Of a stretch of 64,000 nucleotides of DNA, positions 252 to 28,048 are shown one piece after another; the first letter of the stretch is position 1; every line of letters starts with the position of its first letter. The stretch covers positions 66,058 to 130,057 of the forward strand of contig OY969472.1 in the NCBI GenBank assembly GCA_963700155.1, given 5' to 3'. The position numbers and the translations under genes are program-made. Source of the stretch: an uncultured bacterium (GTDB taxonomy: Bacteria > Patescibacteriota > Dojkabacteria > J137). A model generated the notes under the pieces. The model was given only the letters and a program-made list of their open reading frames with translations. It was not told the DNA's origin and made no database searches.

Positions 252-322
252 ATCTAAAAATTATATAACTTGTCTAATTTTATAATCATTTACTCAAGAA
301 TGGAAGGCTTATAATTCTACTT

Positions 323-5041: not shown

Positions 5042-5081
5042 AATAATTGTTTAATATATATTAGATATATTATACAATTTA

Positions 5082-5642: not shown

Positions 5643-5655
5643 ATAATAAAAAAAC

Positions 5656-5671
5656 CTCCCTTTCGGGAGGC
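5656..5671 (-). terminator. intrinsic-terminator-like hairpin CCTCCC-TTTC-GGGAGG followed by T7 on the minus strand, sited about 15 nt upstream of the 5642 start codon
   Basis: perfect 6-bp GC stem plus U-run when read on the minus strand; its position in a 5' leader suggests an attenuator or insulator. Confidence 0.4.
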
Positions 5672-5953
5672 TTTGAATTTAACTTAATTAATTCTTATAG
5701 CGCTAAATACCTCCCATAGCTTATCTTTCCTAAAATGAGGACAAGAATGAGAGAAATAATTTTGTTTAAAGAATTTTTATTCATTATTTTGTTGCTTATT
5801 ATTAATAACGAAACAGGACGATTATATTTTAAAGTATTTTATATTTCAAGATAAAAATTATCTATTTTTCAACTATTTTATATTTATCTATAGACATTTT
5901 AAGTACTTTTTAATAAACTCTGATTGTTAATATTCAAATTAGTAAAAGAATTT

Positions 5954-7378
5954 ATGGCTGAAAGATTAGAAATTCCAACAATCGTAAATATTACTTCAAC
6001 AGTAGAAAAAATTAAAAATGGAGAAATTAAAGTCATTGATTTAATTCAAGAACATTTAAACCGTGCAAAAGAAGTTAATCCTAGGATTAATGCTTTTATA
6101 ACAATTTTCGATGAATCTATAGAAAAAGCTAAAGAATTAGACAAAAAGATTAAGAATAAAGATGAATCGGTAATTAAACTTAAACTTTTAGGAATACCCT
6201 TCACAGCAAAAGACTTATATTTAGTAGAAAATACAAGAACAACATTTTCTTCAAAAATCACTGAAAATTTTATTGCTCCATATACTTCAACAGTAGTTAA
6301 GAAATGTTTGGACGAAGGAGCAATTCTAATTGGGAAAACAAATTCAGATCCATGGGGTTTTGGAGGTAGCGGAGAAAACTCTGGTTATGGACCAACAAAA
6401 CATCCTTTAGACTTTACAAAGACACCTGGAGGCTCCAGCGCAGGCGCTGGAGCCTCCTTATTAGCAGGAGTCGGCTTTTTTGCATTGGCTACTGACACTG
6501 GTGGTTCAACAAGATTACCAGCCTCTTTTTGCGGATTATATGGACTAAAGCCGACTTATGGAAGGAATTCAAGATATGGAATTGGTTCGATGGGCTCTTC
6601 TTTTGATACTCCTGGATTTTTAACAAGGCATATTGAAGATGTTGCGCTTCTTGAAGAAATTATGGCTGGTAAAGATATTAACGACTCAAGTACCTATGAA
6701 ATTCCTAATGAATATTTACCAAAATCTGAGTCTAAAATTAAAATAGGAATTCCTAAACAATACTTTGAAGAAGGTTTAGCACAAGAAGTAAGAAATGAAA
6801 TTGAAAATAAAATCCAAGAATTAAAAAATAAAGGATTTGAAATTAAAGATGTTTCACTTCCAAGTACAAAATATGGACTTGCAGCTTATTATATTCTAGT
6901 TCCTTCAGAGATTTCATCAAATAGAGCTAAATATGATGGAGTTAGATTTGGTCAGAAAGTAAGTGATAATTATGAAGAGAACATGATACAAAGCAGAAGT
7001 AAATATCTCGAAGATGAAGTTAAACGAAGAATCATGATAGGGACTTATTCTTTGAGTGCTGGTTATGCTGATAAATACTATCTACAAGCTAGTAAAGTTA
7101 GAACAAAATTAAAAAGAGAATTCAATAAAGTTTTTGAAGAAGTTGACTATCTAATCGCCCCCGTATCTCCTCTAACAGCTTTTAATCTTGGAGAAAAGTC
7201 TATGGATCCTGTTCAAATGTATCTAGTTGATATCTATACAGTAACAGCAAATCTTGTTGGTATTCCATCAATTGCTATCCCCTTAGGAAAAGACAATAAT
7301 AATCTTCCTGTTGGTTTTCAATTAATGGGTAAAAAATTCTCTGAACCAGAGCTTATACAAACAGCTTCAATGTTGTAA
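5954..7378 (+). CDS. gatA: Glu-tRNA(Gln)/Asp-tRNA(Asn) amidotransferase subunit A
   Basis: amidase signature GGSSAGAGASLLAG and GTDTGGSTRLPASFCGLYGLKPTYG; start set at MAERLE. Confidence 0.85.
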   Translation: MAERLEIPTIVNITSTVEKIKNGEIKVIDLIQEHLNRAKEVNPRINAFITIFDESIEKAKELDKKIKNKDESVIKLKLLGIPFTAKDLYLVENTRTTFSSKITENFIAPYTSTVVKKCLDEGAILIGKTNSDPWGFGGSGENSGYGPTKHPLDFTKTPGGSSAGAGASLLAGVGFFALATDTGGSTRLPASFCGLYGLKPTYGRNSRYGIGSMGSSFDTPGFLTRHIEDVALLEEIMAGKDINDSSTYEIPNEYLPKSESKIKIGIPKQYFEEGLAQEVRNEIENKIQELKNKGFEIKDVSLPSTKYGLAAYYILVPSEISSNRAKYDGVRFGQKVSDNYEENMIQSRSKYLEDEVKRRIMIGTYSLSAGYADKYYLQASKVRTKLKREFNKVFEEVDYLIAPVSPLTAFNLGEKSMDPVQMYLVDIYTVTANLVGIPSIAIPLGKDNNNLPVGFQLMGKKFSEPELIQTASML

Positions 7379-7427
7379 TGTAAAATAATTTTCATTATTA
7401 TGTGTTCATAGCTATTATTTTGAAATA

Positions 7428-8060
7428 ATGAAGAAAGTTTTTATTCTATTGTTTATTTTTGGAATTTTTTTAACATTTGGAATACGAACAGATGCTTTTA
7501 CAGCTGATCCAAATAGCGGAGAATATACTCAAGATACAACTTTAACTTTAGAACTCAAAGCTAAACCTCAAGGGAATGAAAATGCAGTGAGTATTGATCT
7601 ATTAGCTGAAGGTTTAACAATTACTAACTATACTCCACCATCAAGTTCTGATTGGATAGGTAATACATCTGATTGTTCAAACGGTCAGTTATATTCATCT
7701 GACAGAGTCTGTACTAGCATGGCCAAATCTTCAAAAATAGAGGATGGAGAATCTCTTGGAACGATAACAGTACAAATAAAAGGTTCTACATATGGGAAAA
7801 TAACTAAAGGATCAAACAATCTTTATTCTGATTCAACAAATCTAAGAAATGACTTAGGAACATTAGCCGAGTTTAATAAGACTTTTCAAAATAATAATTC
7901 AAGTTCACAGTTACTAAATATACAAATTAGTGAAAATTTACAACCAATACTTATAGCCCTAACATTAGCATTCATTGTAATTTTACTTGTTTTAATGTTT
8001 CTACCAAAAATAAAAACTGTCTTATCAAGCCGTAATGGTGAAAATCCAGGACCGTTTTAA
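7428..8060 (+). CDS. secreted protein with signal peptide and C-terminal TM anchor
   Basis: N-terminal hydrophobic signal, S/T/N-rich body, C-terminal helix ILIALTLAFIVILLVLMF. Confidence 0.35.
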   Translation: MKKVFILLFIFGIFLTFGIRTDAFTADPNSGEYTQDTTLTLELKAKPQGNENAVSIDLLAEGLTITNYTPPSSSDWIGNTSDCSNGQLYSSDRVCTSMAKSSKIEDGESLGTITVQIKGSTYGKITKGSNNLYSDSTNLRNDLGTLAEFNKTFQNNNSSSQLLNIQISENLQPILIALTLAFIVILLVLMFLPKIKTVLSSRNGENPGPF

Positions 8061-15479: not shown

Positions 15480-15634
15480 AGATTCATATAGGTATGAATA
15501 TAAATCCCTTAGTTGGGAACAGACATCATAATAAAGAATTTTTGTGATTTAGTAATATTCATATTAAGAATTTTATCAGATGAAATTGTTATAGACAAAT
15601 TTTATTAGCTATTTTAAAGATTCAATAGCGAAAA

Positions 15635-15652
15635 GGGGGATTTTCATCCCCC
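15635..15652 (-). terminator. GC hairpin GGGGGA-TTTTCA-TCCCCC after the stop of the truncated paralog, marking the left edge of the island
   Basis: 6-bp GC stem, then UUUUCG on the minus strand. Confidence 0.4.
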
Positions 15653-15661
15653 TTTTCTAAA

Positions 15662-15871
15662 CTATCCTTTCTGAAGAGTTTCCTCTTCACTAATGATTTC
15701 AACAGGCCCATCTGCTGATTCGAGGAACCTCTTAGGTTTCTCAGGTAGATGATTTTTCCTCTTCAACTCGGATTCGTCTTCAGCAAGATTGTCCCAAAAA
15801 GTACTTACCTTTAGTTTTACCCATTCAACCAGAAGTTGATAGAGCAAATTAGGGACTATAATGCAGACCAC
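15662..15871 (-). pseudogene. truncated copy of the island membrane-protein family (C-terminal 69 aa only)
   Basis: aligns with the C-terminal tails of 16097-16621 and 17853-18329 (EKPKRFLESADGPVEII versus EETPKNDLVWHEESLEII); the upstream reading frame runs about 20 further codons, then stops where the sequence becomes AT-rich. Confidence 0.45.
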
Positions 15872-15948
15872 TGTTATAAGCAGCGGAAGTTCAGGGAAAA
15901 CCTTACCTACCGCATAAATAATGAGATTAAATTACTGTTAAGAGCATA

Positions 15949-15974
15949 AAGAATGGTTTAGTTTTAAAAGAACT
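15949..15974 (-). promoter_or_regulatory. island promoter-like box, copy a (plus strand AGAATGGTTTAGTTTTAAAAGAAC)
   Basis: one of seven copies of TTTTAAAGAAC, each 40-200 nt upstream of a minus-strand unit. Confidence 0.4.
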
Positions 15975-16010
15975 TTAGTACTAAATAATTTTTTACATTA
16001 GCACTTAACT

Positions 16011-16073
16011 TTTACCGTTTCGTCTTACCAATTACTTGGAAGACTCTTCAGTCCAGCTTCGCTGGAGACGGTC
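16011..16073 (-). ncRNA. hammerhead ribozyme, type III topology (HHR1)
   Basis: on the minus strand: GACCG-GUC | UCCAGC-GAA-GCUGGA | CUGAAGA | GUCUUCC-AAGUAAUU-GGUAAGAC | GAAA | CGGU; all core positions present. Confidence 0.7.
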
Positions 16074-16074
16074 A

Positions 16075-16091
16075 GGGGGATTTTATCCCCC
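16075..16091 (-). other. GC hairpin GGGGGA-TTTTA-TCCCCC between the stop codon of the 174-aa gene and HHR1
   Basis: 6-bp stem; no U-run; abuts the 5' arm of hammerhead stem III. Confidence 0.4.
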
Positions 16092-16096
16092 TTTCC

Positions 16097-16621
16097 CTAA
16101 ACCATACCTTTCTCCAATCTTTCGTCGATTGTGGCGTCAACCACGAGGAGACTCTCTCCATTCCAATGGAGATCTTCGTTCTTCGGCTTCTCTTCGTTCT
16201 TATCCTTCTCAGGTTCCATTGGGACAAGATATTTCCCAACCCAATGGTAGCGTACTGGTTGATTCTCGTTTTTCTTTTTTTCCTCGTTTCCAGAATTCTC
16301 CCACTTCAATACCCAGGTTAAGATAAGCCGTGGTCCATCAATTACCAAGTTATAGCACAGCAATACCATCACCATTGGTAATAAATCAAACATCCAATGA
16401 TTAAGGTATAGGTCGAGTAGGTGTATTACGAACACCATCATAGGGATACCTATCTTGAGCCATCCCCACACATCTTCTCTTGTTTCATTTTTAAACCAGA
16501 AATCGGTGAAAAAATCGCCAAATAGAACGCCAAAAACGATAAAAAAAAGGACAGCCAGTATCACGTAGATTACTTTCCCGACGACTACAACAACGACTTT
16601 GGCAATACGTTTTACAGACAC
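16097..16621 (-). CDS. island membrane protein family member (174 aa), 2-3 TM helices plus K/E-rich C-terminal tail
   Basis: GTG start 7 nt after AGGAGGG; GC-rich codon use; paralog of 17853-18329. Confidence 0.5.
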   Translation of the reverse strand: MSVKRIAKVVVVVVGKVIYVILAVLFFIVFGVLFGDFFTDFWFKNETREDVWGWLKIGIPMMVFVIHLLDLYLNHWMFDLLPMVMVLLCYNLVIDGPRLILTWVLKWENSGNEEKKKNENQPVRYHWVGKYLVPMEPEKDKNEEKPKNEDLHWNGESLLVVDATIDERLEKGMV

Positions 16622-16661
16622 TTTGATTCCCTCCTTTGCGGGTTGAATATCTTGAGAAATT

Positions 16662-16686
16662 AGAATGGTTTAGATTTTAAAAGAAC
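16662..16686 (-). promoter_or_regulatory. island promoter-like box, copy b (AGAATGGTTTAGATTTTAAAAGAAC)
   Basis: near-identical to copies a and d; 41 nt upstream of the 16621 start. Confidence 0.4.
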
Positions 16687-16942
16687 AATAAGTATTAAAT
16701 AAAAAATTTTACATTAATACTAATTCTTATTTTATTATATCATAAAAAATATATAATGTATATATCGTGTATTAATTAGAGTTTATCAAATGTTTTAGGA
16801 GAAACAAATATCTGCCCTCAAACAACATCCCGATAAAATCAAGATCCCTACCGTGTTTAAGGGCATATATTTACCTACGAATTATACCATTCAGAGTGTA
16901 TTTTAATATTTTTGGACTGTAGGGAAGTCCAATATTATTTTA

Positions 16943-17003
16943 CAAACCTTTCGTCTTACCAAATATGGAAGACTCATCAGTCCCGATTATCGGGAGAGGT
17001 TTT
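16943..17003 (-). ncRNA. hammerhead ribozyme, type III topology (HHR2)
   Basis: on the minus strand: AAACC-CUC | UCCCG-AUAA-UCGGGA | CUGAUGA | GUCUUCC-AUAUUU-GGUAAGAC | GAAA | GGUUU. Confidence 0.7.
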
Positions 17004-17009
17004 GGCGGG

Positions 17010-17387
17010 ATTCATATAGACTTTAACTAAAGTATCCCGCCAATTTACGCCACAGAGTGAATCATTTTGATATCTCCTCTAGAATCGAACATCTGGGCAA
17101 AAGCCCTTTGATCATTCACTTTAGCTAGTGAGACTAAAGTACTCAATAACTCCTTCGATGTTCCATCTTAGGTAGTTGATCAGGTCAAGTTACTGACCCT
17201 ATTGAGTTTGCACTAATATTTTTAGTACTATCGCATCGGCCCCAGAGAATTAGCTAACTCCGTACCGACTTTGCGCACAGGCAGTTTGTGATTTAACACA
17301 GCAGAGGGCTACTAACCACGATTTGAGTAACTAACCCAAACCAACATCTGCACTTATACCCTGTGAATTTTGTAATTCCCTCGAGAA
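17010..17387 (-). ncRNA. ORF-free structured segment between the 90-aa gene and HHR2 (3' UTR or independent ncRNA)
   Basis: GC-rich, no ORF of 60 aa or more; several hairpins (GGGC-AAAA-GCCC, GGTCA-AGTTAC-TGACC, ACTTTAG...CTAAAGT). Confidence 0.3.
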
Positions 17388-17660
17388 TTATTTCAAAGTT
17401 AACTCCTTGTATCTACGGATTCCCTGCACAACGCCTCTATAGAAGCAATCTCCAGCGGGATACCACTGGAGTGAGTCCTGTTCACGCATCTCAATCTTGA
17501 GATACGTTTCGAGTCCCCCATGGTCCTCCACGATGACCAGGAATACTACATGACCCCGTGGGTCTTCAACCAGAAACTCGCAGTATTGACCTGCGAGGTC
17601 AAGGTCGAGCTTTTGAAGCTCGACTGCCGCCGCAATTTCGAACCTTGAGTATTTATTCAT
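17388..17660 (-). CDS. island soluble protein, 90 aa, unknown function
   Basis: ATG 5 nt after GGAGGAG; GC-rich; no motif recognised. Confidence 0.45.
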   Translation of the reverse strand: MNKYSRFEIAAAVELQKLDLDLAGQYCEFLVEDPRGHVVFLVIVEDHGGLETYLKIEMREQDSLQWYPAGDCFYRGVVQGIRRYKELTLK

Positions 17661-17681
17661 CTTCTCCTCCACAGAGAACTA

Positions 17682-17697
17682 CATGCCAAATGGCATG
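17682..17697 (-). promoter_or_regulatory. palindrome CATGCC-AAAT-GGCATG in the 5' leader of the 90-aa gene
   Basis: 6-7 bp inverted repeat about 25 nt upstream of the start; same element upstream of two other island genes. Confidence 0.45.
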
Positions 17698-17750
17698 AGC
17701 TTATAGACATACATCTACAAACTGCTGCCATCTAACAATTCGATAGTATA

Positions 17751-17763
17751 AATTTTTAAAGAC
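17751..17763 (-). promoter_or_regulatory. island promoter-like box, copy c (AATTTTTAAAGAC)
   Basis: immediately downstream (minus sense) of HHR3; 91 nt upstream of the 17660 start. Confidence 0.35.
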
Positions 17764-17821
17764 CCAGTTTCGTCTTACCAAAATTTGGAAGACTCATCAG
17801 TCAGGCTAAGCCTGAGACTGT
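17763..17821 (-). ncRNA. hammerhead ribozyme, type III topology (HHR3)
   Basis: on the minus strand: CACAG-GUC | UCAGGC-UUA-GCCUGA | CUGAUGA | GUCUUCC-AAAUUUU-GGUAAGAC | GAAA | CUGGG. Confidence 0.7.
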
Positions 17822-17842
17822 GGAGAGGAATTTCACCTCTCC
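17822..17842 (-). other. GC hairpin GGAGAGG-AATTTCA-CCTCTCC between the stop codon of the 158-aa gene and HHR3
   Basis: 7-bp stem abutting the 5' arm of hammerhead stem III. Confidence 0.4.
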
Positions 17843-17852
17843 GATTTTGACT

Positions 17853-18329
17853 TTATTTCTTTTTTCTAAACCATCCTTTCTGAGGATCTTCGTCCTCCTC
17901 TATGATCTCAAGCGACTCTTCGTGCCACACAAGATCATTTTTGGGGGTTTCTTCGTTTTTCTTTTTCTTCTCTTTCTCCTCTTTATCCTCTGGAATCTTC
18001 TCCCAGAATCTAAAAAGAAGAATCCTGACTCCATCAACCAGGAGTTGACCTACCATGTAGGTCGCTAACATGATTATTAAAGCTTGGATTACGACTTGCA
18101 CTAAGTCATAATTCATGGGATTAATTGAATTCGTGAACATTATTATTGCTATTGCCCCGATAATAAGGGGTAATACCAATTTGAAAAAAAAGATTGAGGA
18201 GGTATTGCCGTGTAGCATCCACCAGTCCCAATCACCAAAGAATAAAACAGAAAATACCCTCCCCAAATTCTTCTTGGAAAGTCTGATATAGTTGTAAAAT
18301 TTTCGTAGATCCCGACGAGTGATCATCAT
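17853..18329 (-). CDS. island membrane protein family member (158 aa), 3 TM helices plus K/E-rich C-terminal tail (holin-like topology)
   Basis: paralog of 16097-16621 (shared LFGD...W, LLVDGVRIL, EETPKNDLVWHEESL motifs); SD AGGGAG. Confidence 0.5.
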   Translation of the reverse strand: MMITRRDLRKFYNYIRLSKKNLGRVFSVLFFGDWDWWMLHGNTSSIFFFKLVLPLIIGAIAIIMFTNSINPMNYDLVQVVIQALIIMLATYMVGQLLVDGVRILLFRFWEKIPEDKEEKEKKKKNEETPKNDLVWHEESLEIIEEDEDPQKGWFRKKK

Positions 18330-18413
18330 TTACTCCCTAGTAGAAAAATTGAACGAATTGTCATAATCGACATTCTAAGAACTTTGAGTACTCAAAATGC
18401 CGACTATGACTTA

Positions 18414-18437
18414 AGATGGTCTAGATTTTTAAAGAAC
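18414..18437 (-). promoter_or_regulatory. island promoter-like box, copy d (AGATGGTCTAGATTTTTAAAGAAC)
   Basis: 85 nt upstream of the 18329 start. Confidence 0.4.
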
Positions 18438-18472
18438 TTTATATTAATCCCAATGTAAAAGCATAAAAGGTT

Positions 18473-18496
18473 TCTCCCCTGATTTCTCAGGGGAGA
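18473..18496 (-). terminator. perfect hairpin TCTCCCCTGA-TTTC-TCAGGGGAGA downstream of the 337-aa gene
   Basis: 10-bp stem; U-rich tract follows on the minus strand. Confidence 0.4.
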
Positions 18497-18685
18497 GATA
18501 ACGAAATTTCAGACTTTAGTCTATCTCCAATTGGAGATTGTACCTGCACAAGGCAGGATTTTTCTGATCTATTCTTTTCTCAGGTTTATAACGGGTCTGC
18601 TAACCGTACAGTTCAGCCTGGTAAGGTTAGACTAAAACTGTCCCTAAGCTTTATTCAAGTTTAGGTTTGAGATATGAAATTTCAC

Positions 18686-19699
18686 CTAACGTCGATAGAT
18701 CATCCCAGACCCAAAGGCTTTGGGTGGGGATATCTTCATCCCCATTCGAGCGAATACACTTTCAAGGCGTGTTCGCTCTGACTCAAGTTTGAAGTTATCT
18801 CCCCCGGTGGGGAAGAACACAAAAACCTGAGTTTTGGGGTTTTGTTCAAGGATGACACGAATATCATCCTCTCCCGCTCCAACTTGAAGCGGAAACGACG
18901 TTGAAAACGGCTGGGTTTCCACCCAGCCGATAATTTCTGAGAGCGGCTTCAAGCCGCTCGAAGTGTAATCAGGGAGAGTGATGCGAACACCCTCTCCCTC
19001 CGTATAAATTGTCCAGATTCGTCCCTTCTCGCGGAGGGAAAACAGCTTTGCCCAAATCTGGGAATCGCTGCTCTGAGCTAGGACACTGGCGACGTACGAG
19101 TCCAACTCGTAGCCTCCAATGTCCATCCCAACCATACCCGCCGTGTAAGCGAATGCCCCCGCAGCTTGGCGGAGATAAGCGCCGGACACAATGAATGTGT
19201 CCGGCTCCCGTTCGAACCACTCAATGTGGTCGAACACGAACGGGGTCACGGGATCAACCGTGACCTTCAAAAAAGCTTGGTCGTGCTCAACCTGAGCACG
19301 ACCGTTTGCAAACCGGACAGCTTCAGCAGCGATTTTCATCGCTGCCTCCACCGCCCAGTTCGAGTCAGGGTCGTCCGCCCAGCGGGTGACCCATTCTTTC
19401 GAAATCCCAGCCTGGCGTTCGCCAGGCACGGAAACAATAACCCCCCAGCGGAGCTGGGAAGTATTGAGCCATTGCGGCATCGCTGCCGCAACGACTCCCG
19501 GGGTATTTTGCATGACAACCGCCTCGGCAGAGGCGGTAATTGCTTGCTGCTCGATCTCGGTCAACTGACCGATAACTTCAGCTTTGTTGAGCGCGAACGT
19601 AACGTTCGCGCTTCCAACAACTTCGACTTGGATGTGGCCGAAGTCGGTCGCATGACGACCGACAACAAAGAACTTTTTGGTTTGAATTTCATTTGCCAT
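18686..19699 (-). CDS. island 337-aa protein, unknown function (strongly GC-biased codons)
   Basis: ATG preceded by GGGGAGGAG; no catalytic or structural motif recognised from sequence alone. Confidence 0.5.
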   Translation of the reverse strand: MANEIQTKKFFVVGRHATDFGHIQVEVVGSANVTFALNKAEVIGQLTEIEQQAITASAEAVVMQNTPGVVAAAMPQWLNTSQLRWGVIVSVPGERQAGISKEWVTRWADDPDSNWAVEAAMKIAAEAVRFANGRAQVEHDQAFLKVTVDPVTPFVFDHIEWFEREPDTFIVSGAYLRQAAGAFAYTAGMVGMDIGGYELDSYVASVLAQSSDSQIWAKLFSLREKGRIWTIYTEGEGVRITLPDYTSSGLKPLSEIIGWVETQPFSTSFPLQVGAGEDDIRVILEQNPKTQVFVFFPTGGDNFKLESERTRLESVFARMGMKISPPKAFGSGMIYRR

Positions 19700-19710
19700 T
19701 TTGAATCTCC

Positions 19711-19725
19711 TCCCCTTCGTGGGGA
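19711..19725 (-). promoter_or_regulatory. 5-bp GC hairpin overlapping the SD of the 337-aa gene
   Basis: minus strand UCCCC-ACGAA-GGGGA; the 3' arm is part of the GGGGAGGAG SD. Confidence 0.3.
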
Positions 19726-19741
19726 CTTAAAAGAACAGATT

Positions 19742-19759
19742 TCATGCCCATTGGCATGA
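19742..19759 (-). promoter_or_regulatory. palindrome TCATGCC-CATT-GGCATGA in the leader of the 337-aa gene
   Basis: 7-bp inverted repeat; a related TGCCA-A-TGGCA core at 19791-19801. Confidence 0.45.
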
Positions 19760-19900
19760 GTCAGAAAACAAATTTTTGCTTTCAAGCTACTGCCAATGGC
19801 AATCTTCTCTTTTTAGAGTTAGACATTGAAAATTTCGTTTGCAGTTATACTGCTACATTGAAATTAATATTTTATGAAGTTATTAAAATTAATTAATAAC

Positions 19901-19916
19901 TTGTTTTTTAAAGAAC
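19901..19916 (-). promoter_or_regulatory. island promoter-like box, copy e (TTGTTTTTTAAAGAAC)
   Basis: about 200 nt upstream of the 19699 start. Confidence 0.35.
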
Positions 19917-20113
19917 ATCTTCTTAAAAGAAGAGATTAATTTAAAAAGACTAAAATACCCTCTTATTTCAAGGTTCGAGAGGTGGTCTTTAGCCACCCCT
20001 CATTTGTATTCTACTTGATTACTAAAAAAACTTAAGTTTTCAAGTAGATAGACTTTAGACATTTTTCACTCGCACCTATTTCTAGGTTGCCTCTTTGTGA
20101 GTTTTTTGGTGGG

Positions 20114-20527
20114 TTAAAAAGATTCCACCTCATGAACTCCCCCAAGGGGGCTGCTAACCAGCCGGGTCGCCCCGACTGACTCAGCGATCCGATTCAGCCG
20201 AGGACTGACCTCGGCAATCCTCAAAAGGAGGTCACTCTTTTTGGGATCCTCCACAGGAGTATCCCAAAGTTCTTTTGCCTCCTCTAAGGTGTAGGGCATA
20301 CCGCCCTCCACCCTAATTTCGACGCCCACCCACTGGGCGTCGACCTCGAGGTATTTAACCTCGGCTTTGAATCCTTCCTTTAGGAAGGATTGCAAAACCT
20401 GTTCTTTCTTCGCCTGCATACCTTGCAGGCGAACGATCATACCCTCCAAGGTTTTTACACCTTCGAGAAAATCCCCCACCCTAACGGTGGGGTATAGACC
20501 GTCATCAAAGTGCATTGTTACTTTCAT
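20114..20527 (-). CDS. island soluble protein, 137 aa, unknown function
   Basis: ATG 5 nt after GGAGGAG; the ORF-track start at 20566 is the ATG inside the leader palindrome and is unlikely. Confidence 0.45.
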   Translation of the reverse strand: MKVTMHFDDGLYPTVRVGDFLEGVKTLEGMIVRLQGMQAKKEQVLQSFLKEGFKAEVKYLEVDAQWVGVEIRVEGGMPYTLEEAKELWDTPVEDPKKSDLLLRIAEVSPRLNRIAESVGATRLVSSPLGGVHEVESF

Positions 20528-20549
20528 TTTTCTCCTCCTCGGAGAATAT

Positions 20550-20568
20550 TCATGCCCGAATGGCATGA
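20550..20568 (-). promoter_or_regulatory. palindrome TCATGCC-CGAAT-GGCATGA in the leader of the 137-aa gene
   Basis: 7-bp inverted repeat; this leader is about 75% identical over 105 nt to the 90-aa gene leader. Confidence 0.45.
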
Positions 20569-20620
20569 GTATATAGACACAAATCTACATACTACTACCA
20601 TTCAGCAATTTGAAAGTACA

Positions 20621-20634
20621 AGTTTTTAAAGAAC
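20621..20634 (-). promoter_or_regulatory. island promoter-like box, copy f (AGTTTTTAAAGAAC)
   Basis: 94 nt upstream of the 20527 start. Confidence 0.4.
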
Positions 20635-20639
20635 ACTGC

Positions 20640-21350
20640 TTTCACAGAGGTTGATAAACTTTTTGATTTACCAACCTCTATTAAAGCTTTTAAGGACTGC
20701 CCTGCTCTCGCGGGGCTTTTGTCATTCGACTTACTTTAAGACTTTTCTCTTACACCTCGGCCACAACGGCTTGGAGGTAAATTTTGTAAATGCCGAAAAA
20801 CTCGGAATTTACTATTTAATATTTGTCTGCATTATATGCAGCACTTTGCTTCGGACAACTAATGTTACCCCCGACCATAATTGCATCTCTCCTATCACTT
20901 TTCGGAGAGAGGATTGAAAACTTTTTAAAATTCTCAATCCTCTCCCCGAAAATCGGGGAAAGGAAAGTCTTTGCTCAAGTGATAGTAACTTGAGACTACT
21001 ATCTTTTTAACCGGTTAACTGTACCTCGCTTTTACGAGACCACCAGTAATCTAACCGATCATCCAGATAATCAAGTATTTAAATACTTAACTACCTTGGT
21101 AGGGTAAGGTAACAAATATATAAATATTTGATTACCTAAATAGCTAGTTCGTACTCACATTTAAGTGAACCACCGAATTTAGCATTAAGCTTTTGTTTAA
21201 TGGAACAAAGCCTAAAAAACAAAAAAAGCTTAGCGTGACTTAAGATAATTCAATCTTAAACCTTGCTAAGCTTTCTAAAAAAACATATTATATTTTTAAT
21301 ATTAATATGTTCAAGCCAATAAGGTAGGATTTATTATCTTGAGCAAATAT
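20640..21350 (-). ncRNA. ORF-free, hairpin-dense segment of about 700 nt; candidate structured RNA with its own promoter box
   Basis: at least 10 stems of 6-9 bp (AGAGGTTG..CAACCTCT, TCTCTCC..GGAGAGA, GAGGATTGA..TCAATCCTC, CCCCGA..TCGGGG, CTCAAGT..ACTTGAG, TTAACCGGTTAA, AAGTATTTAAATACTT, GCTTAGC..GCTAAGC); box g at its upstream end; the only ORF (88 aa, plus strand) looks spurious. Confidence 0.3.
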
Positions 21351-21351
21351 T

Positions 21352-21366
21352 AAGTTTTAAAAGAGC
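21352..21366 (-). promoter_or_regulatory. island promoter-like box, copy g (AAGTTTTAAAAGAGC), no ORF downstream
   Basis: marks the right edge of the island; followed on the minus strand by the structured ORF-free segment. Confidence 0.3.
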
Positions 21367-21563
21367 ATTTATTACTTTAAAGATATTACTATTATATACC
21401 TAGATATATAATATGTCAATACATGGCAACAAATTTTATATATTTTGACATATCACCTATTCACCCTATCAATAAGGCTATCAACAAATCGACGCTGCAT
21501 TATTTACTATTTTTTCACCAATTAGTGATAGTTTTTATCAAAAATGAGTTAGAATAAATACAT

Positions 21564-23711
21564 ATGATACAAAAAAATAACAAACATCAACCTGATGAAA
21601 ATATTGAAACTCAGGTTGATTTAAAAAGAGAGTTGTTTAGTCTTATAAAATCCTCCATTCTTGCAAGAACTAAAGCTAATAGAATGGACTCATATGATAG
21701 TCAAGAAATTTTAAATGCAATTTTTCACCAATTTCCTCAGCTCAGAAGTGAACAATTGCTCCATAATCATCTTGAATGGAATATAAATGAAGTTGATTGG
21801 AACTCTTCAGATTACGTAAATTACTTTTATGGGAATCCTGAAAATTTAGATACAGTTGTTAAATTTATTACTGATAATATTTGGTCTATTCCATTTTTAA
21901 CACCTAATCTGATAAATGAAGCGAAGAAAGAAGATGTTATACCATCAACTATACAAATCTTATATTCAATAATAGAAAAACTCTTACAGCAAAGAAACAT
22001 TGAATCCGCAAAAACATTAAGCAAGAAAATTCTAGTTAATATAAATCTGCTAGTTGAGCTAGGTGGTCATATATGGGTAAATAAATTATTAGAAGCGATT
22101 TCACTACAGAATCATGATCTTTGGGTAAATATATACGGTATGAAAGAGGAAGAATATCAATATTATTTAGATTATCAGAAAAAGATTGAGGGTATTTATG
22201 AATTCAATTCACAAATTCGAAAGCTTGCAAAAGGTAGAATCAACAACTATTCAAGAGATGAAAATGGAGAATTGATTACAACACGCACCGATCATGAAAG
22301 CGAAATTTGGAGAATTGCTGGTAGGAATATACCTTTTATACAACCAGATGATGTACTAGAAAAAGATATCTCAGAAATATGGAGAAATTACGAACAAGAA
22401 CTAATTAATTATATTACTAAAATAAATAAAAGTGATCCTGGGTGGCAATTAATTATAACCGAAATAAATAAACTGGTAGAATATTTAGGAGATAAGGACA
22501 TCAGAGGTCTACACTTAGAATATCCTTTTTGTTTAAATACATTAAGGCAAAATATATTATCTGAATTTAAACGAAAGATTTATTACGACACAAAAACTCT
22601 ACCTGGGAAAACTCCAGCTCCTAAAGACGATAGAGGAAAATCTACGAATTTTCTTGCACAAAATTCAAGCCAAAATGTTTTTATAAGCTATCTGGCATTG
22701 CGACGCCTTATGTTCCCAGACGAAGATTTAGAAAATATAGATGTAAATTCCCCTCGAGCTCATTTAGATTTAGATAGCGTTTATGAAATAGCAAATTTTG
22801 AAGAATATTCAGAAAGCAAACAACTTGAAAGTACACTATATAGAAGAAATATGATATTAGAAATATTAAAAGAATTAAACCTGAATACCACTCAAATCTT
22901 TGAACTAGGCAGTGGGAGTGGTTGGCTTACAAAACAATTACACGATTCCCTACCTGAAGTCCCTATACACAGTCTGGAAATAAGTACTGACCAAATAAAT
23001 GCTGCAAAAAGATTTTTGAAAGATGCAATAGATAAAGAAAATATAACAATTTCCCAACTATCTTGGGACGAATTATCTAGTTGGGTTCCCTTTATAAATA
23101 GAAACAAGACAATTCCAGCAGTATTACTTTGGATGGGAAGAAGTGCTACACATGAAGAGAGTCAAGATTCCTTTATAGCAACGTTACTTAACTTTTCTAA
23201 GTTTATGGAAAATGGAGATTTTCTAATAATGGATATGCCTGATCCAAATACAGGAACATATATAAAACTAAGACAAAATATGGTTAATGCGTTCAATAAA
23301 ATTGGGGAAAATTTAGACCCAATTGTACACATCGAACTAGAAGATTTTGACTATTTGGTTGATTCACCTGATGGTGAACATAATTATAATAGATTTACAC
23401 CTTCCTATCAGAAACTATTGAAAATTTTTGAATTTATAGGATTAGAACCTCAAATTGTTACATTACCGGAGAATATTGGGAAATCAAACTTTAGGAACCT
23501 TGAACAAACTGATAAGATGGATAAATGCATTTTAGAAAGAGTAAATTCAACAGAATATACTAAACGATCAGATCATTCTAACGGATTAACTGATGAAGAT
23601 TATAATAATCGTAGAAATATGGTTTTTGTATTAAAAAAGACAAGAAATGTAGATAGTTTTATATTAAACAATAAGACAGCATTATTACAAACACCTGGAA
23701 GAAGATTATAA
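21564..23711 (+). CDS. multidomain protein with C-terminal class I SAM-dependent methyltransferase fold
   Basis: motif I ELGSGSGW in the C-terminal third; N-terminal 400 aa unassigned. Confidence 0.45.
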   Translation: MIQKNNKHQPDENIETQVDLKRELFSLIKSSILARTKANRMDSYDSQEILNAIFHQFPQLRSEQLLHNHLEWNINEVDWNSSDYVNYFYGNPENLDTVVKFITDNIWSIPFLTPNLINEAKKEDVIPSTIQILYSIIEKLLQQRNIESAKTLSKKILVNINLLVELGGHIWVNKLLEAISLQNHDLWVNIYGMKEEEYQYYLDYQKKIEGIYEFNSQIRKLAKGRINNYSRDENGELITTRTDHESEIWRIAGRNIPFIQPDDVLEKDISEIWRNYEQELINYITKINKSDPGWQLIITEINKLVEYLGDKDIRGLHLEYPFCLNTLRQNILSEFKRKIYYDTKTLPGKTPAPKDDRGKSTNFLAQNSSQNVFISYLALRRLMFPDEDLENIDVNSPRAHLDLDSVYEIANFEEYSESKQLESTLYRRNMILEILKELNLNTTQIFELGSGSGWLTKQLHDSLPEVPIHSLEISTDQINAAKRFLKDAIDKENITISQLSWDELSSWVPFINRNKTIPAVLLWMGRSATHEESQDSFIATLLNFSKFMENGDFLIMDMPDPNTGTYIKLRQNMVNAFNKIGENLDPIVHIELEDFDYLVDSPDGEHNYNRFTPSYQKLLKIFEFIGLEPQIVTLPENIGKSNFRNLEQTDKMDKCILERVNSTEYTKRSDHSNGLTDEDYNNRRNMVFVLKKTRNVDSFILNNKTALLQTPGRRL

Positions 23712-23728
23712 ATTTTTAGATAAACAAA

Positions 23729-24487
23729 ATGATTAATACAACAGATATTGGAATAACTGATAAAGCTTTTGAACTTTACTCAATACTTTTAAAAAATGGG
23801 CTCTCCACTGTTGGCTACTTAATAAAACAGTCTGGTTATAAAAGAGCAACAGTCTATAAAAACTTATATTCCTTAGAAAGTATCGGATTAATTACAAAAA
23901 TTGATGTTAAAAAAGTAATCAATTTTAAAGCAGAACCTCCCAAAAAATTACTTGAATTAGCAGAAAAAAAATATATTGACACAAGACGTGTCTTATCTGA
24001 TATTGAAGGTCTTTTACCTGATTTAAATTCTGATTATATTTTATCAACTGAAAAACCAATAGTTACAACATTTGAAGGTGTAAAAGGATTAAAAAAGATA
24101 TATGAAGATATGCTTTCCGAAAAAAAGGAAATATTTGCAATTTTACAACCAAGTATTGTTGAACCGGAATTATTTAACTGGCTAAATAAAAATTTTTTTA
24201 AAAGAAGAAAAAAATTAGGAATAAGAGTAAATGCATTAGTATCAACTGGTAGTTGGTCCACTGACTATGTAAAACAAACAGAAAAAGATGATATTGGTAA
24301 AACTAGGTTAGTTTCTAGTCAAAAATATCCTTTCAAACTTGAGATGGATATTTTTGGCGACAAGGTGGCTTTCATTAACTACAAAAAGGGCGAGCCTCTA
24401 ATTGGGATTATTATCCACAATCCTTTTATTGCAAAAACAATGAAAGCCACCTTTGATTTAGCTTGGTTAGGAGCAGCAGATAGTTAA
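23729..24487 (+). CDS. TrmB-like HTH transcriptional regulator
   Basis: N-terminal winged-helix segment (GYKRATVYKNLYSLESIGLI) plus a C-terminal effector-like domain. Confidence 0.45.
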   Translation: MINTTDIGITDKAFELYSILLKNGLSTVGYLIKQSGYKRATVYKNLYSLESIGLITKIDVKKVINFKAEPPKKLLELAEKKYIDTRRVLSDIEGLLPDLNSDYILSTEKPIVTTFEGVKGLKKIYEDMLSEKKEIFAILQPSIVEPELFNWLNKNFFKRRKKLGIRVNALVSTGSWSTDYVKQTEKDDIGKTRLVSSQKYPFKLEMDIFGDKVAFINYKKGEPLIGIIIHNPFIAKTMKATFDLAWLGAADS

Positions 24488-25378: not shown

Positions 25379-28048
25379 TTAATAGTTTATCGATATCCAT
25401 TTTTTTAAACAATCAAGAACTTCATCTTTTGAAAGGTCTGCTCTTCTCATAATCATCTTTTCATTATTACCTTCTATACCATATCGGACTACAATTTCAG
25501 TATCTCCTCCATTCTCAAAACATTTTTTTAAATTTTGTAACTCACTTTCATCTGTTACACCTCGTATATCAATATTTAATTTTCTTGGTTGATGTAATGT
25601 GTTCCCATGTTCTACTTCATTTACTATAATTGATTTCCTATCGTCGCGAATATTTATTGTACCTCTGATAATTAAAGGTGTTGTTTCGAGAAGCAAATGT
25701 TGAATTTTTTCAAAAGTTCGGGGAAATACAACTGCATCAGCTTTACTTGTGTCATCTTCAAGTGTAAGTATCGCCATCCTTTGATTATCTTTCTTAGTAA
25801 AAGTATATCTTACATTAGAAATAGTACATAGAACTTTAATATTCTTATTGTGTTCTAATTCATCTATTGTGTTTAATTTAACAAATTCTGGGAAAATTCT
25901 TGTCCATCCAAATCTCTGTAAGGGATGAGATGAGATAAAAATTCCTAAAAGCTCTTTTTCCCATTTTATTTTCTCGTTCTCTCTAACAGGATCAACTTCG
26001 GGTAAAGTAGTTGCATTAACTTTTCTTACAACGGGTTCTTCATCACCACCTAAAAGACTAAATAAGTCAGTCTGATTTTCATCAACAGCTTTTGATTTTA
26101 TATTCGCCTTTTGTAAAACTTCTGGCATTACAGTTAAAAGCGCATTCCTATCCCCAAATTCATCTAATGCACCTGAACGTATTAAACTTTCTAATGATCT
26201 TTTATTAATAATATCTGTTCCAACTCTTACTACTAAATCATCCATGCTTGTATATACTCCATTTTCTTCTCTTTCTTTTATAGTCGTTTGACAAACTTTA
26301 ATCCCAACATTTTTTATAGCACCTAACCCAAATCGGATAGAATCTTCGTTTTCAGGGGAGAAGTAAACTTTAGAAGTATTTATATTTGGTGGCAAGACTT
26401 TATAACCCATTCTTTTAGCTTCTTGAATATCAATTGTAACCCTATCTAAATTTTCAAGGTCAGCATGCATCAAAGCTGTCATAAATTCTAAAGGGAAATG
26501 TGCTTTTAAATATGCACATTTATATGCCAACACAGCATACCCAGCAGCATGAGCTTTATTGAATCCATAATCAGCAAATGGCAAAAGCATTTCCCAAAGT
26601 TTATCTGCTACTGCCTGCGAAAAGCCGTTTTTTACGATTCCTTCTTTAAATTTTGGCTCTTCTTTCTTCATTACATCAAGTTTCTTTTTCCCGACGGCTT
26701 TTCGCAGGCTATCAGCTGCACCCATATTATAACCTGCTAAATCTACAGCAACTCTCATCAACTGCTCTTGATAAATCATATATCCATTTGTAACATCAAC
26801 AATATGTTTAAGTTCAGGAATTGGATATTCAGCTTTTTTTAATCCATGTTTTATTTTTATATAGTCAGGGATGTATTTCATGGCACCTGGACGATATGCA
26901 GCAACCATAAAACAGATATCCTCTTGTGTTTCAGGTCTAAGTTCTTTTAGATATTGCTGCATAGGTGGTGACTCAAACTGGAATACACCAATTGTTTCAC
27001 CTTTAGAAAATATGTCAAAGGTTTTTTTATCATCTGAAGGAATATTATAAAAATCTACATTATTTCCATCTTTTCCATTAATTAACTTAAGAGCATAATC
27101 AATAATACCTAATGTTCTTAAACCCAAGAAATCAAATTTCATTAAACCTAACTCTTCAATATATGGACCTTCAAACTGAGTTACAGTTCTACCCTCACCT
27201 CCTCGCTCTTTTTGAAGTGGAACATAGTTTATTATTGGACCTGGAGTAATAAGATGTCCGCAAGCATGTACTGAAGAATGTCTCCCCATATTCTCAATCT
27301 TGCGAACATAATTAGCAAGTTCCTGAAGCTTAGGATTTCCATTTATTATCGAAGAAAATTCTTCATCTGTCTCCATCATCTTGTCTATTGGATAAACTTT
27401 TCCAAATAAAACGTGAACCATTTTAGAAAGCTTATCAGCTAATACTAAATCGATACCCATTACTCTTGCAACATCTCTAATCGCAGCTTTAGTTTTTAAT
27501 CTTCCAATGGCTATAATCGCAGAAACTGCATCTTCACCATATTTTTCTTGAGCATATGCAATAACCTCATCTCTTCTTGTATCTTGAATATCCATATCGA
27601 TATCTGGAGGTGAAGGCCTTTCAGGGTTTAAAAATCTTTCAAAATAAAGTTCCCACTTTAAAGGTTCAACCTCAACAATTTCAAGACAATGAGCAACAAC
27701 ACTTCCTGCAACAGAACCTCGTACTCCCATAAGGATTCCCTGGCTTGCTGACCATTTCATTAAGTCAGAAACTACAAGAAAATAATCATCGTATCCTTTG
27801 TCATGAATAACACCTAATTCATATTCAATTCTTTCAAATAAATCATCACCTAAATAATCTTTTAAAGTTTCATAATTTGCATTATCAATTTCTTGAAGCA
27901 TAAAATCATTAGTTAATGACTTTTTCTCATGACGATATTTAGAATCTTTATATTTTATTATTGCACCTTGATAAGTCTGCTTTTTTAAGTTCATCTCCTG
28001 CAGTGCTTCCTTTTGGTACATTCCAAAACTTTGGCTGAACTCTGTCAA
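25379..28048 (-). CDS. dnaE: DNA polymerase III alpha subunit, polymerase core and C-terminal part (in a different frame from the PHP part)
   Basis: DnaE palm/fingers motifs (GYDDYFLVVSDLM, FDFLGLRTL, KAHAAGYAVLAYKCAYLKAHFP). Confidence 0.8.
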   Translation of the reverse strand: MTEFSQSFGMYQKEALQEMNLKKQTYQGAIIKYKDSKYRHEKKSLTNDFMLQEIDNANYETLKDYLGDDLFERIEYELGVIHDKGYDDYFLVVSDLMKWSASQGILMGVRGSVAGSVVAHCLEIVEVEPLKWELYFERFLNPERPSPPDIDMDIQDTRRDEVIAYAQEKYGEDAVSAIIAIGRLKTKAAIRDVARVMGIDLVLADKLSKMVHVLFGKVYPIDKMMETDEEFSSIINGNPKLQELANYVRKIENMGRHSSVHACGHLITPGPIINYVPLQKERGGEGRTVTQFEGPYIEELGLMKFDFLGLRTLGIIDYALKLINGKDGNNVDFYNIPSDDKKTFDIFSKGETIGVFQFESPPMQQYLKELRPETQEDICFMVAAYRPGAMKYIPDYIKIKHGLKKAEYPIPELKHIVDVTNGYMIYQEQLMRVAVDLAGYNMGAADSLRKAVGKKKLDVMKKEEPKFKEGIVKNGFSQAVADKLWEMLLPFADYGFNKAHAAGYAVLAYKCAYLKAHFPLEFMTALMHADLENLDRVTIDIQEAKRMGYKVLPPNINTSKVYFSPENEDSIRFGLGAIKNVGIKVCQTTIKEREENGVYTSMDDLVVRVGTDIINKRSLESLIRSGALDEFGDRNALLTVMPEVLQKANIKSKAVDENQTDLFSLLGGDEEPVVRKVNATTLPEVDPVRENEKIKWEKELLGIFISSHPLQRFGWTRIFPEFVKLNTIDELEHNKNIKVLCTISNVRYTFTKKDNQRMAILTLEDDTSKADAVVFPRTFEKIQHLLLETTPLIIRGTINIRDDRKSIIVNEVEHGNTLHQPRKLNIDIRGVTDESELQNLKKCFENGGDTEIVVRYGIEGNNEKMIMRRADLSKDEVLDCLKKWISINY

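Follow-up and report, generated by a model that had tools for sequence, protein, structure and literature searches.

Clustered hammerhead ribozymes flank prophage genes in Clostridium scindens, Azorhizobium caulinodans, and Agrobacterium tumefaciens (PMC3088659, 2011). According to that paper, these ribozymes cleave in vitro and in Escherichia coli, and processing of polycistronic RNA was proposed as their function. Such a processing function for bacterial and phage hammerheads is still regarded as unproven, and the role of the hundreds of self-cleaving ribozymes of bacteria and phages is treated as an open question in a later review (PMC6765202). Here we describe three hammerhead motifs, HH-A, HH-B, and HH-C, from the genome of an uncultured Dojkabacteria bacterium, a member of the candidate phyla radiation (CPR). 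They are located within 1.8 kb of each other in the same orientation and flank two small genes, p94 and tm174, which is a clustered arrangement. Each of them directly follows a GC-rich hairpin, and we consider it fairly probable that they divide one long transcript into separate messages. The window that was analyzed is a 64-kb stretch of contig OY969472.1 (assembly GCA_963700155.1, positions 66,058 to 130,057). All coordinates are positions in this window, and the features of the island that holds the ribozymes are all on the minus strand.

Three type III hammerhead motifs and their relatives

A first-pass annotation, made from the letters of the window, had proposed three complete type III hammerhead cores in one orientation on the minus strand, and our check of the sequence placed every end within 3 nt of where that annotation had put it. 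Read from 5' to 3', each motif opens with the stem III 5' arm, after which come U16.1-H17, a 6-bp stem I with a 3-nt loop, CUGANGA, stem II, GAA, and A15.1, and it ends with the stem III 3' arm. Loops close stems I and II, and stem III is open, which is type III topology. The core is complete in all three copies: C3 U4 G5 A6 N7 G8 A9, G12 A13 A14, and the A15.1-U16.1 pair are present, as is the G10.1-C11.1 pair. N7 is U in HH-A and HH-B and A in HH-C, and H17 is C throughout. In stem II (GUCUU-CC ... GG-U-AAGAC), which is identical in the three copies, a bulged U separates 5 bp from 2 bp and the loop has 6-8 nt; all differences in stems I and III are compensatory. The annotation had the invariant nucleotides, the identity of stem II, and the compensatory changes right, and our predicted cuts agree with the ones that it gave: 17816/17815 in HH-A, 16996/16995 in HH-B, and 16067/16066 in HH-C, after the cleavage triplets GUC, CUC, and GUC, respectively.

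Such motifs are not expected by chance in a sequence of this length and composition. The window contains three exact matches to the pattern of stem II plus core, compared to 0.00 in 100 shuffles. A strict type III descriptor, run over both strands of the 64 kb, returns three sites, exactly HH-A, HH-B, and HH-C, against a mean of 0.05 in 100 shuffles. The minimum free energy (MFE) structure of HH-B and of HH-C is the hammerhead fold. The Rfam model RF00008 (Hammerhead_3, clan CL00010) gives 38.3 bits for HH-A, 34.3 for HH-B, and 32.3 for HH-C. The covariance-model search that had been suggested as a check gave a divided answer: in an 8-kb search the three motifs are the top three matches of the region (E-values from 1.3e-5 for HH-A to 6.3e-4), but all three stay below the RF00008 gathering score of 48.5. 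At the gathering threshold, Rfam reports two tRNAs and nothing else. With E-values up to 10 over 14-22 kb, the matches besides the hammerheads and tRNAs are at chance level, and with E-values up to 0.5 over the whole window no other ribozyme or noncoding RNA family rises above chance level. The shortfall is one of score threshold, as no structural feature is missing, and the curated Rfam threshold misses this hammerhead subfamily. On these results, the motifs are real and far above chance expectation.

Relatives were retrieved from public collections by the core plus stem II pattern. This pattern is present in seven genome assemblies, five of which carry the names of CPR lineages (Dojkabacteria, two Saccharibacteria, WWE3, and a metagenome-assembled genome [MAG] of the Microgenomates group), one of which was binned as Bacillota, and one of which is unclassified. 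Metagenomes of activated sludge, groundwater, and sediments add 14 contigs. The long stem II pattern of the window copies was found in no viral contig searched. In the searches made, the subfamily with the conserved stem II (GUCUUCC...GGUAAGAC) was found only in CPR-type genomes and metagenome contigs. We aligned 17 distinct family members, all picked by the stem II pattern (alignment A2). Stem I is paired in 100% of the cells, with 6/6 pairs changed on both sides, and in stem III this holds for six of the eight pairs, which brings the number for the two stems to 12. Overall, 95.4% of the cells are paired, compared to 35-40% after a shift of the partners by 1-3 columns, and the covariation score is reached by no shuffle. 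The invariance of stem II in this alignment carries no weight, because the stem II pattern was the search query; stem II does vary (GCUC/GAGC and GUCC/GGAC) among the array mates within two loci discussed below, L006 and L015. The type III topology and single orientation that had been proposed are therefore supported by the core, the covariance-model signal, two of the three MFE folds, and the covariation in the family.

The last base of loop I is A in 17/17 members of the alignment. No Watson-Crick pairing between loops I and II is evident in HH-A, HH-B, or HH-C, and the invariant A and the sequence-conserved, bulged-U stem II are candidates for a tertiary contact that would serve activity at low Mg2+. 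Model R1, a covariance model derived from alignment A2, finds only the three motifs in the window, with 69.9 bits for HH-A. Two relatives occur singly. L002 carries one hammerhead of the same subfamily at 124-184 with a convergent tRNA at 286-359(-), and L005 carries one at 3635-3698 with a convergent tRNA at 3720-3793(-). These hammerheads end 20-100 nt from the tRNA 3' end, a position typical of the integration sites of mobile elements.

A hairpin-ribozyme module in a compositionally foreign island

All three ribozymes are preceded, at a distance of 0-2 nt, by a GC-rich hairpin that has no U-tract (Table 1). It had been noted before that HH-A and HH-C directly follow a GC hairpin, and this stands; HH-B had been described as following just a 380-nt structured stretch, but it also has a GC hairpin directly before it. 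A fourth hairpin, homologous to an internal one (repeat family D3), is followed by a U-tract and makes up the intrinsic terminator where the island ends. An alignment of the 3' ends of the three membrane-protein paralogue genes (alignment A4) shows the hairpin plus HH-C after tm174 and the hairpin plus U-tract after p69. Inside the island the ribozyme therefore holds the place that the U-tract holds at the island end.

This module recurs elsewhere. L006, from a Saccharibacteria MAG, has four hammerheads (5053-7494) and L015, a Hainich groundwater contig, has three (1478-3970), in one orientation within each locus. They are about 0.7-1.7 kb apart and lie between small open reading frames (ORFs), and six of the seven come just after a strong GC hairpin. 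One ribozyme-flanked cassette in L015 includes a small membrane protein. There is no cargo or noncoding RNA common to the arrays of the window, L006, and L015; the ribozymes alone match. When we used the short-stem-II core of L006 and L015 (GCUC-AAAA-GAGC) as a query, 28 IMG/VR viral contigs were retrieved, 26 of which have the full motif. About two-thirds of these contigs have a strong hairpin immediately upstream, and most have an A-rich leader and an ATG about 20-25 nt downstream. Six contigs carry two or three hammerhead copies, spaced about 0.8 to 2.3 kb apart, and the phage genes nearby include GroEL and moron-type genes. A 31-nt short-stem-II stretch (CUGAUGAGCUCAAAAGAGCGAAACAGAAA...) is 100% identical between L006 (5926-5956 and 6657-6687) and L015 (3216-3246), with no other match.

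The island is clearly different in composition from its surroundings, with 42% GC compared to 29-30% in the flanks and chromosome, and single ORFs reach 61% GC. Roughly 60% of it is noncoding. The window itself is bacterial chromosome, from a contig of 1.14 Mb, with genes for CysRS, MetRS, an Asp/Asn-type tRNA synthetase, DnaE, MutS, DnaK, and GatA. Both junctions of the island are reproduced in a separate record, an 11.3-kb Logan contig (L008) with 99.98% identity. The three closest TrmB orthologue loci, in other genomes (L116-L118), keep the pair of methyltransferase and TrmB genes without the island and without a hammerhead, and because of this comparison we take the island to be a strain-specific, horizontally acquired insertion. 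It probably originated from a phage or mobile element. What is observed in favor of a prophage context is the foreign composition, the occurrence of a domain of the p337 protein in phage-like contigs, and the fact that the module is common in viral contigs. No integrase or PHROG match was obtained for the island with Pfam and PHROGs, and neither the island nor the scanned ORFs (20 of the 40 window ORFs of at least 180 amino acids plus the small island ORFs) yielded a recombinase.

In the predicted direction of transcription, the island starts with the promoter and the chain of hairpins, followed by p150, p337, tm158, the hairpin with HH-A, and p94. Then come the structured stretch, the hairpin with HH-B, and an AT-rich spacer with the promoter-like site, and finally tm174, the hairpin with HH-C, p69, and the U-tract terminator. 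After p337 there is also a terminator-like hairpin (18496-18473).

Table 1. Features of the island (a slash in the letters marks the predicted cut)
Feature	Position	Strand	Description and basis
Compositionally foreign island, about 5.5 kb	15620-21420	minus	GC content, junction comparison
Sigma-70 consensus promoter	21419-21391	minus, into island	TTGACA-17-TATAAT, 12/12 matches; promoter scan
ORF-free leader, 745 nt	20640-21384	minus	About 13 consecutive long hairpins; MFE -248.9 vs shuffles -158.1 kcal/mol, z = -12.7
p150, 137-amino-acid ORF	20114-20527	minus	53% GC, GGAGG ribosome-binding site; orphan
p337 ORF	18686-19699	minus	Up to 61% GC; N-terminal 160 amino acids are a conserved domain
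tm158, small membrane protein	17853-18329	minus	Tail charged; tm174 and p69 are paralogues; hairpin and HH-A come next
GC hairpin before HH-A	17842-17822	minus	GGAGAGG-UGAAAUU-CCUCUCC; 1 nt before HH-A, 10 nt after tm158 stop codon
HH-A, type III hammerhead motif	17820-17765	minus	CAGUC/UCAGGC-UUA-GCCUGA CUGAUGA GUCUUCC-AAAUUUU-GGUAAGAC GAA ACUG; sequence, descriptor scan, RF00008, model R1, fold
Junction motif	17763-17753	minus	GUCUUUAAAAA; directly after HH-A
p94, about 90 amino acids from ATG 17660	17388-17660	minus	ORF between HH-A and HH-B
ORF-free structured stretch, 387 nt	17004-17390	minus	Between p94 and HH-B; fold z = -3.6
GC hairpin before HH-B	17041-17004	minus	GGCGGGAU...AUCCCGCC; directly before HH-B
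HH-B, type III hammerhead motif	17002-16944	minus	AAACCUC/UCCCGA-UAA-UCGGGA CUGAUGA GUCUUCC-AUAUUU-GGUAAGAC GAA AGGUUU; sequence, descriptor scan, RF00008, MFE fold
Promoter-like site	16762-16734	minus	TATACA-17-TATAAT with upstream TG; AT-rich spacer between HH-B and tm174
tm174, small membrane protein	16097-16621	minus	Between HH-B and HH-C; orphan
GC hairpin before HH-C	16091-16075	minus	GGGGGAU-AAA-AUCCCCC; 2 nt before HH-C, after tm174 stop codon
HH-C, type III hammerhead motif	16072-16014	minus	ACCGUC/UCCAGC-GAA-GCUGGA CUGAAGA GUCUUCC-AAGUAAUU-GGUAAGAC GAA ACGGU; sequence, descriptor scan, RF00008, MFE fold
p69, remnant-like C-terminal membrane-protein paralogue	15662-15871	minus	Downstream of HH-C
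GC hairpin and U-tract	15652-15636	minus	GGGGGAU-GAAA-AUCCCCC then UUUUCGC; intrinsic terminator at island end (terminator scan)

The proteins of the island have few relatives. The six island ORFs gave no match in Pfam and PHROGs, and a phage GenBank collection gave no match to the island proteins either. For tm174 there is no homologue in 5.8 billion sequences, and p150 matches only itself among 1.84 billion representatives. The p94 ORF is absent from the public gene call and has no homologue among the loci compared, and p69 shows 33% identity to residues 84-152 of tm158. The only part of an island protein with relatives outside is the N-terminal domain of p337 (residues 1-165, with the motifs VGRH, QNxPG, SVPGxR, ANGRAK, and VTVDPxxxFxFxHIEW), which has 14 homologues in 5.8 billion proteins. 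Three of these homologue loci (L009-L011) are high-GC, phage-like contigs in which the gene lies beside SSB, DnaN, Mom, and serine recombinases, and no hammerheads were found at these three loci. The AlphaFold (AF2) model of this domain has a predicted local distance difference test score (pLDDT) of around 90; it gave no significant fold match in PDB or BFVD and no sequence match in PDB.

A second repeated element accompanies the ribozymes. The island has seven copies of the motif A(A)AGTTCYTT(W)AAA, one of which, the GTCTTTAAAAA that follows HH-A, is shorter; the rest of the 64 kb has one. The six other island copies, G(T/C)TCTTTWAAAA, start at 21366, 20634, 19916, 18437, 16686, and 15973. 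Copies are also present in L006 (5118, 6773, and 7497) and L015 (1533, 3247, 3975, and 4273), and about seven of the ten array ribozymes of the window, L006, and L015 are followed by it at a distance of 2-4 nt (six exact, one degenerate). It stands upstream of every island ORF, and homology between the leaders begins exactly at the motif. At the four remaining junction motifs, model R1 and the descriptor find no additional hammerhead, intact or degenerate. We considered several identities for this motif and rejected them. It is not a sigma-70 promoter, as neither a -10 nor a -35 box recurs consistently, least of all in L015, which is richer in GC. It is not an integron attC site (GTTRRRY/RYYYAAC) either, as GTTCYTT does not conform to GTTRRRY and the ORF scan turned up no integrase. 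A phage motif is also not indicated: the pattern CGAAACNNNRAARGTTCYTT has 62 viral matches compared to roughly 56 expected by chance (for an assumed collection of about 6e10 bases), only one of these viral contigs has a descriptor match, which looks spurious, and the GTTCYTT motif is absent after the viral hammerheads.

The leaders and gene ends share other elements as well. All five window copies of CTARACCAT are in the island, three of them in leaders (18424-18416, 16673-16665, and 15961-15953) and two, as AUGGUUUAG, at ORF ends (17874-17866 and 16105-16097). The membrane-protein cassettes have CUAAACCAU in the leader and the complementary AUGGUUUAG in the stop-codon region. The leader/tail duplex has z scores of -3.1 (tm158), -1.8 (tm174), and -3.4 (L015 membrane cassette), and it is not significant in the other ten cassettes. 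It is possible that this complementarity reflects hok-like 5'/3' fold-back pairing or that it consists of DNA inverted repeats. At the 3' ends of the three membrane-protein genes (17882-17866, 16114-16097, and 15673-15657) the element RAGAAAGG(U)AURGUUUAG is kept, and the encoded tails are KGWFRKKK*, KGMV*, and KG*, respectively. Because the reading frame and the stop codon differ among the three paralogues, this element looks conserved at the RNA or DNA level and not at that of the protein.

Two smaller similarities concern the leaders. A 77-nt repeat with 81% identity precedes p94 (17762-17686) and p150 (20632-20556), and in p150, p337, and p94 the GGAGG ribosome-binding site closely follows a conserved hairpin, CUCAUGCCA-N2-3-GGCAUG (about 20568-20550, 19760-19743, and 17699-17682, respectively). 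The 745-nt leader lies directly downstream of the consensus promoter; it belongs to no Rfam family, and its weak microRNA matches merely reflect the hairpins.

A TrmB-family gene adjoins all three arrays (window, 21564-24487; L006, 3316-4062; L015, 13-822), and it is host-like in GC. In the lineage of the window it is paired with a methyltransferase-like gene of 520-770 amino acids, and island-free relatives keep this pair. Relatives of this TrmB carry the names Gottesmanbacteria and Parcubacteria; like the 29% GC and the hosts of the ribozyme relatives, they point to a CPR-like host. TrmB was rejected as an obligatory partner of the arrays, as the three closest orthologous loci have no hammerhead, and the link is unproven. 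Farther from the island, DNA polymerase III alpha is present as two overlapping minus-strand ORFs, one with the PHP domain (27948-28964) and the other with the polymerase, finger, and OB domains (25379-28048); this pair (25379-28964) may stem from gene splitting, from a frameshift, or from faulty assembly. An Rfam Phe_leader match at 5645-5771 on the minus strand, upstream of a 186-amino-acid ORF, has 39 bits compared to a gathering score of 55 (E-value, 0.006) and is probably a chance match or a terminator-like structure.

Probable transcript punctuation and other readings

The reading that we favor, and consider fairly probable, is that HH-A, HH-B, and HH-C are functional type III hammerhead ribozymes, with self-cleavage as their predicted activity, and that they punctuate the polycistronic transcript of a mobile element into separate mRNAs. 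Transcription of the minus strand would start at the consensus promoter, with the promoter-like site between HH-B and tm174 as a second start. RNA polymerase would be expected to read through each GC hairpin before a ribozyme because these hairpins have no U-tract. The hammerhead would then fold in the nascent RNA and cut it 6-8 nt past the hairpin. The upstream message would carry the hairpin at its 3' end, together with a 2',3'-cyclic phosphate, and would resist 3' exonucleases, and the downstream message would start with a 5'-OH and the folded ribozyme body, which would make it a poor substrate for 5'-end-dependent RNases. The predicted products are tm158, p94 plus the structured 3' region, tm174, and p69, whose stability and translation would be uncoupled. 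The complete cores, the covariation, the hairpin before all three ribozymes, the homologous hairpin in the terminator, the arrays elsewhere that share the ribozyme module alone, and the modules in viral contigs argue for punctuation, as does the published cleavage of clustered prophage hammerheads (PMC3088659, PMC6765202). Transcription, in vivo cleavage, and effects on stability would follow from this reading. In the viral contigs, the ATG about 20-25 nt past the ribozyme leaves no room for a promoter, and the cleaved downstream RNA should therefore be the translated message.

Several points weigh against this reading. The MFE structure of isolated HH-A is a competing, noncatalytic fold, and its stem III has just 4 bp. 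Rfam reports no hammerhead here at its gathering threshold. The island has no integrase and no recognizable phage structural gene, so that its phage origin is indirect. The terminator-like hairpin after p337 and the promoter-like site after HH-B indicate that some genes may be independent of one long transcript. Punctuation does not explain the GTTCYTT motif after the ribozymes. Finally, cleavage and expression at this locus are predictions from the sequence, and the effects of 5'-OH and 2',3'-cyclic phosphate ends on RNA stability in CPR bacteria are conjectural.

It is possible, although we think it unlikely, that the window, L006, and L015 represent a distinct kind of CPR island: arrays of GC-rich orphan minicassettes beside a TrmB gene, delimited by ribozymes, with fold-back membrane cassettes and a composite junction made up of the GC hairpin, the type III hammerhead, and the A(A)AGTTCYTT motif. 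The ribozyme would then be part of a system for the expression or exchange of cassettes, and the motif would be the binding or recombination site of a putative factor. We keep this possibility in mind because the junction motif, the TrmB adjacency, the complementarity within the cassettes, and the 745-nt hairpin chain are otherwise unexplained.

The ribozymes might also act as insulators or silencers. An active ribozyme would sever read-through transcripts, the RNA downstream would be left untranslated or degraded, and each cassette would depend on its own promoter. In one variant, the ribozyme is a substitute for a terminator that shields possibly toxic membrane-protein genes from leaky expression. 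The promoter-like site between HH-B and tm174 fits this idea, as does the position of the hairpin-hammerhead module where a hairpin and U-tract terminator would sit, and two of the three ribozymes in the window, like those around the membrane cassette of L015, flank small membrane proteins. However, the leaders after HH-A and HH-C have no convincing promoter, and in the viral contigs there is no space for one before the start codon. An insulating role is therefore rather doubtful.

Less is to be said for regulated cleavage, in which competing folds, Mg2+, or a factor acting on stem II or GTTCYTT would tune the flanking genes to a signal. The noncatalytic MFE structure of HH-A could be read in this way, and so could the identical bulged-U stem II of the three window copies, the A of loop I in 17/17 members, and the conserved motif after most array ribozymes. 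Regulation has also been raised for phage hammerheads (PMC3088659). On the other hand, the motifs carry no extension resembling an aptamer, HH-B and HH-C take the canonical fold in isolation, and outside the window the invariance of stem II is there by construction, stem II having been the search pattern. We regard regulated cleavage as improbable.

Three further readings are very unlikely. The first is that neighboring ribozymes free an 820- or 930-nt RNA that is circularized by the ribozyme or by an RtcB-type ligase and behaves as a circular or mobile RNA. Ends with 5'-OH and 2',3'-cyclic phosphate suit RtcB ligation, the ribozymes have the same orientation and are about 0.8-0.9 kb apart, and the RNA between them is structured. 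Type III is also typical of circular RNA replicons (bioRxiv 10.1101/2024.05.16.594327). However, the stem III arms are incompatible between the copies (CAGU/ACUG, AAACCU/AGGUUU, and ACCGU/ACGGU), and because neighboring arms cannot pair, the ends of a unit cannot rebuild one hammerhead. Moreover, the units are not repeats of one another, and the eight island and flanking ORFs scanned have no Pfam match and so no recognizable reverse transcriptase. Perreault et al. sought circular or spliced products of their clusters and found none (PMC3088659).

The second is that the hairpin, ribozyme, and GTTCYTT together form an integron-like recombination site in DNA, with RNA activity secondary or absent. 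Arrays of small, unrelated, compositionally foreign ORFs in one orientation, split by structured repeats, would be expected of such a system, and the leader homology that starts exactly at GTTCYTT and the inverted repeats that bracket the membrane-protein cassettes would fit as well. Against this, no recombinase was found in or beside the island among the ORFs scanned, the motif falls outside the attC core, and a DNA site would have no need of a perfect core and of stems that covary as RNA helices, G-U pairs included. The third, that the motifs are inactive relics carried along with decaying mobile DNA, would agree with the truncated paralogue p69, the large noncoding share of the island, and the Rfam scores below threshold, but every core nucleotide is kept in all three copies and stems I and III have diverged by compensatory changes only.

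Comparison with known hammerhead systems

Compared to RF00008 type III hammerheads, the window copies have the same core (CUGANGA ... GAAA), U16.1 and H17, the three-way junction, and the open stem III. They differ in the long and sequence-conserved stem II (a bulged U between 5 bp and 2 bp, with a loop of 6-8 nt), in the 6-bp stem I with a 3-nt loop that ends in an invariant A, and in being encoded by DNA in a bacterial chromosome and not by a circular RNA replicon. Retrozymes and viroid-like RNAs (PMC4918200, PMC5680766) resemble the locus in that an RNA of 0.6-1 kb is bounded by type III hammerheads that point in the same direction. In contrast to retrozymes, the copies in the window do not repeat one another exactly, neighbors have incompatible stem III arms, there are no long-terminal-repeat-like repeats and no reverse transcriptase, and the cargo is protein coding with ribosome-binding sites.

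The modules in the IMG/VR contigs are also type III, with a GC hairpin 0-2 nt before stem III and arrays of two or three copies. Their short-stem-II core is identical to that of L006 and L015, whereas the window copies have the long stem II instead, and, unlike in the window, an A-rich leader and ATG follow directly, without GTTCYTT.

Should the composite junction and the TrmB neighborhood turn out to be systematic, these arrays would offer a new way to study how genes move and how mRNAs are processed in organisms for which culture on their own is not yet possible. Model R1 and the about 25 relatives can be used to survey CPR genomes and phages. The locus offers an unusually clean natural comparison, as homologous hairpins precede a hammerhead within the island and a U-tract where the island ends. 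This suggests a testable rule, namely, that a hairpin with a ribozyme behind it gives the RNA a terminator-like 3' end while the polymerase continues.

The closest described arrangement is that of the prophage clusters. As in the 2011 report (PMC3088659), several ribozymes in one orientation flank one gene or a short run of genes of unrelated, mostly hypothetical function in foreign DNA. In contrast to those clusters, the island has no integrase or recognizable phage gene and its host has a small, AT-rich, CPR-type genome. The fixed hairpin-ribozyme spacing, the junction motif, and the homologous hairpin in a terminator were not found in the passages of that report consulted here (PMC3088659). 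A full-text literature search found no paper that links hammerheads with CPR or Patescibacteria, and the locus extends hammerheads to the reduced genomes of this type. The arrangement as such has thus been known from prophages since 2011, and what is new here is the host group, the comparison of hairpin plus ribozyme with hairpin plus terminator, and the unexplained elements that accompany the ribozymes.

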